DNA of 64,000 bases from a bacterium (GTDB taxonomy: Bacteria > Patescibacteriota > Minisyncoccia > UBA6257 > UBA9933). The notes under the pieces are model-generated. The model was not told where the DNA came from. It did no database searches and saw only the letters and a program-made list of their open reading frames with translations. Position numbers and translations under genes: made by a program. This document shows positions 6,291-51,515 of this stretch, one piece after another (position 1 is the stretch's first letter; every line of letters begins with the position of its first letter). The stretch is taken from assembly GCA_030693235.1 (NCBI GenBank), contig JAUYBE010000006.1, positions 139,601 through 203,600 of the forward strand, read 5' to 3'.

Positions 6291-6361
6291 AATTAACCTA
6301 ATTATTCTAATTTCTAATTTCTAAATTAGGTCAATTAGAAATTAGGTCAATTAGAAATTTA
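6291..6361. repeat. Heptamer inverted-repeat element (TTCTAAT/ATTAGAA)
   Basis: CCTAATTATTCTAATTTCTAATTTCTAAATTAGGTCAATTAGAAATTAGGTCAATTAGAAATT. Confidence 0.8.
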
Positions 6362-35860: not shown

Positions 35861-35900
35861 ATTACTATGATATCAAACGATCGTGTGATATCATAGTAAT
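35861..35900. terminator. Hairpin between convergent genes
   Basis: ATTACTATGATATCA...TGATATCATAGTAAT. Confidence 0.55.
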
Positions 35901-48927: not shown

Positions 48928-49599
48928 TCATTTTTTGATCACTAAAGATAAAGTTTTATCAAAATCTCTATTTTTTTTCCAAGATTTTTCAATTAATCGT
49001 CTTAATTTATTATGCGGAGCGCGGCCATAATCCGGGAAAAATAAAAATTTATCAAATTCTAAATTGAGTAAAACCGTGAATGCTTCTTTTATGTCCCAAA
49101 TTTTATTTTCTGAAAGTCCGCTATTTTCACATTTTTCCCAATAATATTTATGGAACATAAAATGCATTAGCTCGTGCATGGCTGTGTCAATTGCTATGTA
49201 TTTATTGCTAAACATTTTGACCGCAAACCATTCTTCTTTTATTTTATAACCAAACTTATCGGCAGAAGATAATACTCCTTTAACTGATTTATGGGGAAAT
49301 CGGTGTTTATGTACTTGTTCCAGTTTTTTAATAAAATCCTTTTCAATTTTTAACCACTCTTTGTTTATATCTTGAGCAAGAGATTTTAATTGCCTTTCTT
49401 TTTTATAAAGATATTCAATATTTTTTCTTATAACATTTTTTCTCTTTATTAGGGGTAATTTTAATAAATTTTCATTTGCTGGGATTATTTGTTGCGGAAA
49501 CCCCCGATCTATATTTCTTTTATATGCATTTAAAGCAATTAGATGATTTTCAATGTCTAAATTTTTATCAATAACAAATTTAATTATTTGTTTTTTCAT
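48928..49599 (-). CDS. Hypothetical HExxH protein (putative zinc metallopeptidase)
   Basis: MHELMH...KE; AT-rich. Confidence 0.55.
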   Translation of the reverse strand: MKKQIIKFVIDKNLDIENHLIALNAYKRNIDRGFPQQIIPANENLLKLPLIKRKNVIRKNIEYLYKKERQLKSLAQDINKEWLKIEKDFIKKLEQVHKHRFPHKSVKGVLSSADKFGYKIKEEWFAVKMFSNKYIAIDTAMHELMHFMFHKYYWEKCENSGLSENKIWDIKEAFTVLLNLEFDKFLFFPDYGRAPHNKLRRLIEKSWKKNRDFDKTLSLVIKK

Positions 49600-49604
49600 A
49601 AAGT

Positions 49605-49678
49605 TGGCTGCGGGGCTAGGAATCGGACCTAGATTTAGAGATTCAAAGTCTCTCGTGCTACCATTACACTACCCCGCA
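49605..49678 (-). tRNA. tRNA-Gln(UUG)
   Basis: Reverse complement TGCGGGG...AGAGA-CTTTGAA-TCTCT...CTAGG-TCCGATT-CCTAG-CCCCGCA-G-CCA. Confidence 0.93.
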
Positions 49679-50353
49679 ATTTCCCAAAATACCTTCTATC
49701 CAACCGCTAATTTTTCTGTTTAAATTAGTACTTTTGTTCACTAATATCCTTACTAATCCATAATAATTCTCATTCGTATTTTTTCTTTTCGTATTAACTT
49801 TGTTTCTTTTAAAATATACATATTTAAATTTATTTTGTGAAGCTTTAGTGATTTTTGACCAGTACTGGATGGAATCAACTACTTTATTTTTAGAATTTTC
49901 GTGTATGTAAATTTCATACTTTATATCATTTTCCGGTATTTTTAATATTTTACGCAACCATTCCATAAAAACTTTTATCATCATTGGATCGGAATTGCTA
50001 AAAGTTACTCCTTGACTAATATTATGCGGTTTTGATTTACTGCCTTCAGCCCAATATAAAGAAACTCCTATTAGCCATAATTCTCTATTTGAAATGTTTT
50101 TTATTTCCGAAATAGCTTTATTTTTAATGAGCCGGACTATTTCAATCCTTTTATTTCTTTTGGCGATAGCCCCGCGTTGCATACTAGCCAATTTCTTTTC
50201 TGTCAATCTTTGTTTTTGTTTTTTAGACAAACCAACCGATCTTAGCCATAAAGAAAGCGTTGATTTAGCAACCGGAATTTGTTTTAAAATTTCAGAATAA
50301 GAAAAACCCAACTTTCTTAAATTTATTGCCTTTTCTTTTGCTGTGGCTTTCAT
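49664..50353 (-). CDS. HTH + LAGLIDADG-like protein overlapping tRNA-Gln
   Basis: LRKLGFSYSEI...VAKSTLSLWL (HTH); GVSLYWAEGSK...FSNSDP (LAGLIDADG-like). Confidence 0.65.
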   Translation of the reverse strand: MKATAKEKAINLRKLGFSYSEILKQIPVAKSTLSLWLRSVGLSKKQKQRLTEKKLASMQRGAIAKRNKRIEIVRLIKNKAISEIKNISNRELWLIGVSLYWAEGSKSKPHNISQGVTFSNSDPMMIKVFMEWLRKILKIPENDIKYEIYIHENSKNKVVDSIQYWSKITKASQNKFKYVYFKRNKVNTKRKNTNENYYGLVRILVNKSTNLNRKISGWIEGILGNCGVV

Positions 50354-50408
50354 ATGAACAACGATGATATATGTAAATTATATTATATCGTTGTTCGAAA
50401 ATCAATCA

Positions 50409-51515
50409 TTATTTCAAATTTTCTATAATTGCCACTTCCAGCGGCACGATTGCGAACGGACTATAACGCATTTCAGTGTAAGCTTCAATCAGCGATTTAA
50501 TCAATCTAACGGTTTTTTCCGCGTCAATCGCTTGGCTGTGTTTTTTAATGGTTTTCATTTCTTGGTCGGTCAGTTCGCGGGAAAAATGATTTTCCAGTTC
50601 CGGAGAAAATTTTAAAGCCAAAACTCGGCGGAAATAATGGATTAAATCTTTATTGAGCTGGGTAAGATTATAACCGCCTTCGTTAATCTTGGAAAGATAT
50701 TCCAATCCGGCCGCCAAATCGCGATTTATCAGCAATTCCGCCAGTTTGGATGTTTTTGAAAAAGAAACGGAGCCGATAATTTCTTCAACATCGTTAATGT
50801 CTATTTGTTTTCCGGATTTTAGCGAAGCAATCTGATCTAAAAGCGATTCGGCGTCGCGCATGCTTCCGCCGCCCGCTTCGGCGATTAATTCAACGGCTTC
50901 ATCGCTGATTTTAATGCTTTCCGTTTCGGAGATGCTTTTCAGTTTTTCGGCTATTGTCTTAAGCGCCAGTCTTTTGAAATGAAATCTTTGAGTTCGGGAA
51001 ATAATCGTCGCCGGCATTTTTTCGGCTTCGGTGGTTACCAAAATTAAAATCGCGTGAGCCGGCGGTTCTTCTAAAGTTTTCAAAAGAGCGTTAAAAGCGT
51101 CTTTGGTCAATTGGTGGGCTTCGTCAATAATATAAACTTTATAATGATACGCGGCAGGGGAGACGCGAATGCTTTCTTTGATGTCGCGGATTTCATCAAT
51201 GCCTCGATTGGAAGCGGCGTCAATTTCAATAACGTCCATTGCAGAACCCTTGTCAATTTCCAAACAAGCTTGGCATTCATTGCACGGTTCGCCGAGTTTT
51301 TTAAAAGCCGCGTCGCTAAATCGCTTTTGGCAATTGGCGATTTTGGCGATAATTCTGGCGGTGGTGGTTTTACCCGAACCTTTCGGTCCGTAAAACAAAT
51401 AAGCGTGAGCCAAACGGTCAAGCCGTCCCGCGTTTTTTAAAAGTTCCGAGACTGCTTCTTGTCCCAGAAGATCGGATAAGATTTTGGGCCGATATTTGCG
51501 ATAAATAGCCAGCAT
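50409..51515 (-). CDS. dnaX: DNA polymerase III gamma/tau
   Basis: YRKYRP, GSGKTT, EIDAASNRGID, IIDEAH, NALLKTLEEPP. Confidence 0.97.
   Translation of the reverse strand: MLAIYRKYRPKILSDLLGQEAVSELLKNAGRLDRLAHAYLFYGPKGSGKTTTARIIAKIANCQKRFSDAAFKKLGEPCNECQACLEIDKGSAMDVIEIDAASNRGIDEIRDIKESIRVSPAAYHYKVYIIDEAHQLTKDAFNALLKTLEEPPAHAILILVTTEAEKMPATIISRTQRFHFKRLALKTIAEKLKSISETESIKISDEAVELIAEAGGGSMRDAESLLDQIASLKSGKQIDINDVEEIIGSVSFSKTSKLAELLINRDLAAGLEYLSKINEGGYNLTQLNKDLIHYFRRVLALKFSPELENHFSRELTDQEMKTIKKHSQAIDAEKTVRLIKSLIEAYTEMRYSPFAIVPLEVAIIENLK

Follow-up and report, generated by a model that had tools for sequence, protein, structure and literature searches.

A cassette between dnaX and tRNA-Gln(TTG)

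The stretch of DNA analysed here (64,000 nucleotides, hereafter the window) belongs to a 611 kb assembly, and named homologs are labelled Ca. Wolfebacteria or Patescibacteria. On its minus strand, an ORF of 229 aa that joins a helix-turn-helix (HTH), a long helix and a LAGLIDADG-like domain (49664..50353) lies between dnaX (50409..51515), a host gene that forms the conserved upstream flank, and tRNA-Gln(TTG) (49605..49678), called by ARAGORN as the only Gln tRNA with a TTG anticodon in the assembly. The ATG is 55 nt from the end of dnaX (50409). Promoter, operator and gene form a cassette of 730 bp (49679..50408, minus strand), running from the dnaX stop to the tRNA, and in kin a spacer of 2–69 nt or unrelated cargo is found instead. 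The protein ends in GNCGVV, and its final four codons with the TAA stop (49664..49678, minus strand) are bases 1–15 of the tRNA. Two features first noted from the sequence were thus confirmed, namely the stop inside the tRNA, at base 15, and the A+T richness of the ORF, the GC content of which is 29.6%, versus 39.0% across the window and 39.1% genome-wide. In the contigs of four runs, no joint skipping the gene was found.

Directly behind the tRNA is another AT-rich ORF, of 223 aa (48928–49599, minus strand), with a HELMH (HExxH-like) motif. As it had no Pfam match and no homolog among the other loci checked, it is probably separate cargo.

A family tied to the 5' ends of tRNA genes

The family profile gave 5,823 clusters at 50% identity, and 2,131 of 2,474 candidates scored at E ≤ 0.001. 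Among 108 genome loci (112 less 4 duplicates), the stop falls inside a tRNA in 55, at most 20 nt upstream in 40 and further away in 5. At the other 8, no tRNA was called; three of these are at contig ends, one reads through the tRNA, and one is a weak HTH-only match. In metagenomes, 64 of 67 distinct proteins (from 80 loci, repeats dropped) precede tRNA-Gln(TTG), 43 of them stopping inside it. A search unbiased to Gln found the family in 35 of 151 genomes of the phylum, and all 29 phylum-wide loci other than that of the window have a same-strand tRNA within 130 nt. Twelve amino-acid types are represented, and the clades of the protein correspond to the type of tRNA. For some members, the only tRNA is upstream. 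For comparison, 12 of the 46 tRNAs of the genome have an ORF of at least 100 codons ending in the interval from −20 to +25 nt relative to the tRNA start, 5 of them inside. Because 95 of 108 and 29 of 29 family loci compare with this background of 12 in 46, the link to tRNA 5' ends, which the original prediction had proposed, is real and strong.

The overlap itself is less peculiar. Two housekeeping genes here also use tRNA stops: tRNA-Pro(CGG) supplies, at base 10, the stop of a racemase (PF01177; L469 118–951, minus strand), and tRNA-Glu(TTC), at base 15, that of a class V aminotransferase (PF00266; L470 170–1579, minus strand). Stop triplets occur in tRNAs at positions 8–10, 13–15 and 19–21, and packing is tight, so the overlap is a by-product and not special. 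It had been supposed that the D-arm stop was borrowed by design. Collecting the homologs bore out that about half do stop in the tRNA, and not the design, as 40 of 108 end just upstream and the Streptomyces relatives stop before the tRNA. RNase P RNA, SmpB and tmRNA are all encoded in the genome, so a non-stop mRNA after RNase P cleavage may arise here, and for about half of the family; a non-stop message generated by tRNA processing was already proposed for T4 segB (PMC2330249).

A pattern scan gave 120 loci, mostly in Actinomycetota, of which 39 were too short and 1 had no match. Of the remaining 80, 67 precede tRNA-Gln(TTG), with two HTHs and with glmU behind, and in nearly all of these 67 the stop is 1–35 nt before the tRNA. 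Seventeen viral loci were found, mostly in tRNA arrays of large phage contigs; annotated phages gave no match to the family. The genome of the window has a paralog outside it (G000:C17:133229–133911, plus strand; 31% identity) that ends at base 10 of tRNA-Ala(GGC). This Ala-type paralog (L111, L471) is divergent from tRNA-Arg(CCT), and Ala-type copies recur in several kin. Five proteins of 504–576 aa (P0134, P0138, P0156, P0157, P0168) have two or three matched stretches and are tandem-HTH or fused forms. A phage ORF behind a tRNA cluster (L156 3001–3735) has a similar N-terminal HTH, with an HNH-like C-terminus recognised by eye.

Several tRNAs beside members carry anticodon-loop introns (L088, L105, L106, L299, L291, L285, L286), and in L285, L286 and L299 Rfam identifies these as group I; such an intron would split the target proposed below. 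At Phe-type loci, ARAGORN called a tRNA intron in 4 of 5, one of them a group I intron confirmed by Rfam. We did not retain introns as a form of immunity, there being no baseline intron frequency with which to compare these 4 of 5 loci.

No description of the family was found in the open-access literature searched; in the accessible part of PMC7143001, only an rRNA-intron LAGLIDADG is mentioned. The family is large and, within that coverage, without earlier description, as an HTH-LAGLIDADG architecture in front of tRNAs.

Intact, decayed and empty alleles

We found dnaX in 44 of 51 family genomes. With G031, G057b and loci where no tRNA was called left aside, 39 family loci have a tRNA-Gln in reach. 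Of these, 6 have an intact gene, 5 a remnant, and 28 no gene, with a short spacer or unrelated cargo between dnaX and the tRNA. Carriers are scattered on the dnaX tree. In the remnant of G054, the upstream operator arm is fused to the final 24 codons. The comparison with gene-less dnaX-tRNA-Gln loci, proposed as a check, thus reveals the patchy and decaying spread expected of a homing-endonuclease-like gene. In three unsaturated pairs, dN/dS was 0.15–0.22. Over a wider set of 39 loci, the correlation of gene and dnaX distances was 0.39, and among 11 splits with support of at least 95, 3 were shared and 3 conflicting.

The dnaX-tRNA-Gln spacer (L161–L199) is an insertion hot spot, with 0.4–1.7 kb of varied cargo. 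Its tRNA is of the CTG type in four kin genomes (a fifth, G016, being cut by the contig end), and is inverted in G066.

In Streptomyces, 45 of 61 genomes had a match to the gene, 41 of them near full length. Ten of the 16 negatives were examined, and all keep the final codons before the tRNA, as a 3' remnant. Gene and glmU distances correlate at only 0.16. At L438–L461, each decayed copy examined retains the last 15–25 codons before the tRNA; these may hold the tRNA promoter, which would favour their retention.

An HTH joined to a LAGLIDADG-like domain

Residues 1–48 (50210..50353; this and the following features on the minus strand) form an N-terminal HTH of the resolvase/transposase type (Z 5.5–6.1), and HTH_23 (Pfam) was found in 44 of 119 homologs. 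A long linker helix follows (residues 52–83, 50105..50200), the C-terminal half of which is predicted to lie against the last helix of a partner, and then a single alpha/beta LAGLIDADG-like domain (residues 86–225, 49679..50098), with a domain model pLDDT of 92.6. When the fold was compared with 48,161 chains using VIA-align, the top five matches were all LAGLIDADG proteins, WhiA, the TliVMA intein nuclease, I-DmoI, E-DreI and I-Tsp061I (Z 6.0–6.7, rmsd 2.8–4.2, 85–93 aligned), as were 7 of the best 8 (Z 5.5–6.7); all these Z-scores are below 8, in the range where the tool warns of common arrangements, and are moderate. The HTH and LAGLIDADG-like motif recognised in the original prediction thus find moderate structural support.

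PDB sequences gave 7 matches, all to I-DmoI (best E 0.073), and LAGLIDADG_3 (Pfam) was matched weakly by 1 of 119 members (E 0.003) and by 1 of 100 (E 0.01). No match was obtained by Foldseek on both models at E ≤ 0.001, by the A1 profile against PDB sequences, or by a Pfam search with the window protein, and NCBIfam and PHROGs scans of 32 members matched no LAGLIDADG family. We consider, with moderate confidence, that the protein has a LAGLIDADG fold lying below the cut-offs of curated profiles.

Candidate catalytic-site residues are E103 (50045–50047), K106 (50036–50038) and N120 (49994–49996), which in the I-DmoI sequence match (E 0.073) align with E117, K120 and N129. E103 is invariant in alignments of 100 and 32 rows, and K106 and N120 are kept in at least 90% of the 100-row set. 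According to the part of PMC3384342 available, E117 and K120 are catalytic in I-DmoI, and both are lost in WhiA.

Prediction of a homodimer gave a score of 0.80, versus 0.01 for the best control, with a pLDDT of at least 82 and agreement between runs on at least 90% of contacts. The mark for this score is one that 20 of 30 solved homodimers, but also 1 of 23 monomers, reach, and the pass may reflect likeness to solved LAGLIDADG dimers. In the predicted interface, helix 91–103 packs on itself and helix 69–87 on helix 213–228 of the partner. The protein is therefore predicted to dimerise via its LAGLIDADG helices, its two HTHs projecting far outwards.

A conserved operator-like repeat over the promoter

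Upstream of the gene is a symmetric, operator-like site of 41 bp, GAAC-N33-GTTC (50356..50396), which ends 2 nt before the ATG. Its arms, GAACAACGAT (50356–50365) and ATCGTTGTTC (50387–50396), are exact and at the positions first given for them. A sigma-70-type promoter, TTGATT-17-TATAAT (50377..50405, minus strand), overlaps the upstream arm. A promoter-pattern scan returned 11 such sites, versus 10.5 in shuffles, so the support for this promoter is conservation and not the scan. Neither is a perfect 10-bp inverted repeat rare by itself in the window, where 40 overlapping matches at about 14 places were found (block-shuffle mean 3); it is conservation that sets 50356–50396 apart. Other long perfect inverted repeats are at 679–728, 1087–1124, 6307–6358 and 35861–35900, one of them beside tRNA-Pro(GGG).

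Four GAAC-N33-GTTC sites exist in the genome, and pairing at all six further positions is found only at 50356–50396. Among 140 Gln-type relatives, 96 have the motif. Its GAAC and GTTC hardly vary, and its span is 41 bp at 52 of 74 loci and, in a larger set, at 80 of 100. At the 96 sites, picked by their GAAC/GTTC anchors alone, 422 of 576 inner cells pair, versus 312 ± 8 in shuffles that ignore kinship. We also considered an RNA hairpin. The repeat does fold (−13.5 kcal/mol), but its span and GAAC core are fixed, and G.U mismatches are no commoner than A.C (34 versus 37 of the 576 inner cells; 21 versus 23 in an earlier, smaller set). The repeat thus appears, from its pattern of conservation, to behave as a duplex-DNA operator rather than as an RNA stem, and the operator reading of the original prediction is supported. 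A hairpin may play a role on the side, in dnaX read-through transcripts.

The half-site resembles the variable-loop/T-arm region of tRNAs, the best of the genome's 45 tRNAs being Gln(CTG), Arg(CCT) and Gln(TTG), a likeness that may partly reflect A+T content. Compared at individual loci, operator and own tRNA showed no covariation (375 versus 386 in shuffles), nor did operator span and variable-loop length, and operator bases gave no clear signal with protein columns. In Streptomyces the repeat is GAAC-N15/16-GTTC with an inner GAAC, so that the half-site is common to both groups and the 41-bp span is not. No GAAC/GTTC repeat was found at the Ala-type paralog of the same genome.

SOS boxes bound by LexA have the spacing GAAC-N4-GTTC. 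A LexA operator was rejected here, as the spacing is N33 and no LexA DNA-binding domain was found in the assembly. In three loci from high-GC MAGs (L330, L331 and L343, the last labelled Actinomycetes), the members stand beside tRNA-Glu(TTC), mostly divergently, with GAAC-N4-GTTC, an SOS-box-like spacing, at the gene start. LexA may act there, or the site may consist of the half-sites of the family at a short spacing.

The tRNA gene body as the inferred target

The anticodon arm of the tRNA is a natural 17-bp inverted repeat (49637..49653, minus strand), with pair 31:39 at 49649/49641, and 20 bp from the anticodon centre is the T-loop GTCC (49625..49628, minus strand), GTTC in most alleles, which we propose as the HTH contact. 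The half-span of the operator is 20 bp in 80 of 100 loci, and C56 lies equally far from the anticodon centre (20 bp at 107 of 140 loci, 21 at 32). This equality suggests, as a matter of sequence geometry, that the dimer could be centred on the anticodon.

Residues and tRNA bases were compared over 140 Gln loci. After three pairs caused by the overlap, the top pair was T117 (50003–50005, minus strand), a candidate specificity residue, with bases 31 and 39. K at residue 117 goes with G31 in 17 of 31 cases, and Q with C31 in 14 of 24. In tree simulations, p was 0.0025 for this column, and 0.14–0.21 family-wise over columns. The set of beta-sheet columns, led by T117, I148 and S105, gave p 0.004 at position 31, the best of 21 positions (about 0.08 after correction). 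By independent pairs, which were too few, residue 117 and 31:39 gave no significant result, and nearest pairs gave a Fisher p of 0.12. When the same pre-chosen pair was taken to Streptomyces, p was 0.02, with Q or E accompanying C31 in 9 of 10 cases versus 11 of 56; the beta-sheet set failed there (p 0.23), and the pattern was not seen across non-Gln subfamilies. The apparent covariation of residue 117 with pair 31:39 is thus weak both in CPR and in Streptomyces, a lead and not a proof.

T117, three residues before N120, occupies what we take to be the place of Q44 in I-CreI. In I-CreI, residue 44 reads position ±4 (PMC1635285, available part), and bases 31 and 39 are each four bases from 35. 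If K and Q at this residue avoid the protein's own allele, 6 of 55 cases are exceptions, versus 24 of 55 if they match it. Because exceptions are fewer under avoidance, and because an active nuclease must spare its host, the own allele may be avoided rather than matched.

The original prediction had the element inserting at tRNA 5' ends. Its tight 5' link stands; as to the target, the evidence points to the body of the tRNA gene, anticodon arm plus T-loop, with exchange of alleles, and not to an empty 5' junction.

Discordant and variable tRNA alleles

The tRNA-Gln allele of the window is 90–97% identical to those of G017, G054, G045 and G005, whose dnaX is 56–65% identical, and only 65–73% to those of G006, G066 and G024, the nearest full dnaX matches (74–76%). 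It is thus closer to the alleles of other carriers than to those of its nearest kin by dnaX. In three pairs with close genes (76–85% identity) the tRNAs are 97% identical, whereas pairs with dnaX at 80–83% have tRNAs at 76–78%. In partial Mantel tests over all pairs, the tRNA tracked neither the gene nor the host marker (p 0.45 in CPR, 0.22 in Streptomyces). At L017 (near the gene end) and L067, a tRNA 5' stump is followed by a full, different tRNA-Gln, with the appearance of a replacement scar.

In Streptomyces, tRNA identity is 80% for nearest-gene pairs versus 71% for nearest-glmU pairs (36 versus 23 of 61). Relative to the reference allele of G217, tRNA-Gln(TTG) is 54–94% identical there (median 68%, 27 genomes), and the two tRNAs used as controls, Lys(TTT) and Glu(TTC), are 86–100% and 93–100% identical (59 of 61 genomes each). 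Sixty-seven carriers among Streptomyces-like hosts have 27 anticodon stems of tRNA-Gln(TTG). The tRNA-Gln(TTG) beside the gene is thus hypervariable in Streptomyces relative to two control tRNAs. This does not extend to CPR, where Thr(CGT) and Pro(GGG) vary as much.

Two other readings of the alleles were rejected: the T-loop GTCC as an immunity mark, since it also occurs in empty alleles, and a D-arm type that stays constant within a protein lineage, since 14 changes are counted on the tree. D-arm type B is found in 7 of 11 carrier or remnant loci versus 7 of 28 empties, with few independent pairs.

Discussion

We favour, with somewhat better than even confidence, a self-repressing, free-standing homing endonuclease that would cut foreign tRNA alleles at the anticodon arm and spread with its own tRNA. 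The predicted homodimer would be centred on the anticodon of the tRNA gene, its beta-sheet reading the anticodon-stem palindrome, with residue 117 near pair 31:39, and an HTH contacting the T-loop GTTC. A foreign allele would be broken in the anticodon arm, the own allele being likely resistant, and repair templated by the carrier would copy both cassette and tRNA. The same protein would repress its own promoter at GAAC-N33-GTTC, a copy of the target geometry. The flush position at the tRNA would keep the gene within the conversion tract, the stop inside the tRNA being a by-product of this position, and processing by RNase P may leave a non-stop message for tmRNA. Once fixed, the gene would decay.

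The picture first drawn of this locus was classical insertion homing, in which an empty tRNA 5' junction is cut, a site that the insertion then abolishes. In its favour, genes always end near tRNA base 1, with a fixed register in 37 Gln loci, simple empty alleles exist, and L017 keeps a tRNA 5' stump 42 nt before its full, different tRNA. We nevertheless hold this unlikely: the empty spacers, of 2–69 nt or filled with cargo, have no common sequence; no remnant-free site was found among 28 Streptomyces loci showing the tRNA with glmU; and discordant or hypervariable tRNA bodies, the GTTC half-site and the 31:39 signal are left unexplained. That the protein might not cut at all, being a domesticated, WhiA-like DNA-binding regulator of the tRNA that follows it, was suggested by WhiA tying for the best fold match (Z 6.7), by purifying selection (dN/dS 0.15–0.22), by its frequency in Streptomyces (45 of 61) and by the tRNA being directly behind the cassette promoter. 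Against this, the catalytic Glu and Lys, absent from WhiA, are kept, loss and decay are frequent, GC is low, copies stand in phage tRNA arrays, and regulation gives no reason for allele turnover, so that we give it only a slight chance.

Other activities could also be imagined for a protein of this kind. A defence nuclease against tRNA genes of incoming phages or integrating elements, with a resistant own allele and homing as a secondary matter, would follow the same target logic as the favoured reading, and large phages do carry both tRNA arrays and family members (17 viral loci). Homing, unlike defence, requires the strict placement beside the cognate tRNA, however, and the remnants suggest little benefit to the host; such a function seems improbable to us. 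Least credible, and in our judgement very improbable, is a protein acting on RNA, which might cleave anticodons, the neighbouring tRNA serving as antidote, or else help tRNAs to mature. The covarying pair is the one closing the anticodon loop, there are RNA maturases among LAGLIDADG proteins (PMC3384342, available part), and several adjacent tRNAs carry introns, but most are intron-free, the symmetric predicted dimer, two HTHs and symmetric DNA operator fit duplex DNA, and remnants keep the tRNA after gene loss without visible cost.

Beyond this locus, it is possible, although we would not call it probable, that the whole HTH-LAGLIDADG family has the tRNA gene as built-in target, one tRNA per subfamily. 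The dimer core would find its palindrome in the anticodon stem, an HTH would be anchored by the universal GTTC of the T-loop, and competing cassettes would drive an arms race at the level of alleles, making Streptomyces Gln-UUG hypervariable. If our homing reading holds, a selfish nuclease rewrites a core gene of translation, in a family with members in 35 of the 151 genomes sampled from the phylum and in 45 of the 61 sampled from Streptomyces. There would then be a cause for tRNA allele turnover, with at least 27 anticodon stems in Streptomyces-like hosts while two control tRNAs barely vary, and a new LAGLIDADG architecture with many natural specificities. Homologs in the culturable genus Streptomyces permit a direct test, not possible with CPR bacteria alone. 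New here are the operator test, the half-span geometry, the 117/31:39 covariation, the dimer model and the Streptomyces control; SegB-type intronless homing, T-loop recognition by SegB, and an I-TevI operator mimicking the homing site were already known.

Comparison with known systems

Like domain 2 of I-DmoI and homodimers of the I-CreI type, the protein has an alpha-beta core and a LAGLIDADG helix with the catalytic acid and a Lys three residues on, and is predicted to dimerise helix to helix. It differs from them by its N-terminal HTH on a 30-residue helix, a short beta1-beta2 hairpin and a beta3-beta4 insertion, by its place outside introns and inteins, and by lying below every Pfam cut-off. 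With WhiA/DUF199 it shares the LAGLIDADG fold, an HTH and autoregulation (PMC3384342, available part; predicted in the present family). WhiA, as described there, is a conserved core gene with two domains per chain, a C-terminal HTH and no catalytic residues, whereas the window family keeps the Glu and Lys, has its HTH at the N-terminus and is patchily distributed; on these three differences we do not place it in WhiA/DUF199.

The available part of PMC2988022 describes the operator of I-TevI as overlapping its own promoter and mimicking the homing site. In the present family, too, the operator-like site lies across the gene's own promoter, and it resembles the proposed homing site. I-TevI is, unlike it, a GIY-YIG monomer encoded in an intron; the family has a symmetric 41-bp site and a predicted dimer.

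The closest parallel in way of life is SegB of T4, a free-standing GIY-YIG homing endonuclease in a tRNA cluster, which recognises the T-loop motif GGTTCRANTCC and spreads itself with neighbouring tRNA genes (PMC2330249). Control of segB was proposed to involve a 5' hairpin, and cleavage of the message ahead of its stop codon during tRNA processing (PMC2330249). SegB has another fold and is found in phage only; its cuts fall at the 3' ends of tRNAs and are loosely specific, with even T4's own sites being cut, and the accessible part of that paper describes neither subfamilies per tRNA nor a symmetric operator. Common to both is a free-standing gene among tRNA genes; recognition of the T-loop and spread together with tRNA genes would, in the present family, be further parallels. 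As in SegB-type homing, the gene is optional at a fixed locus, with alleles that lack it (28 of 39 family loci). In its proposed working the family resembles SegB-type intronless homing, and it is no relative of SegB.
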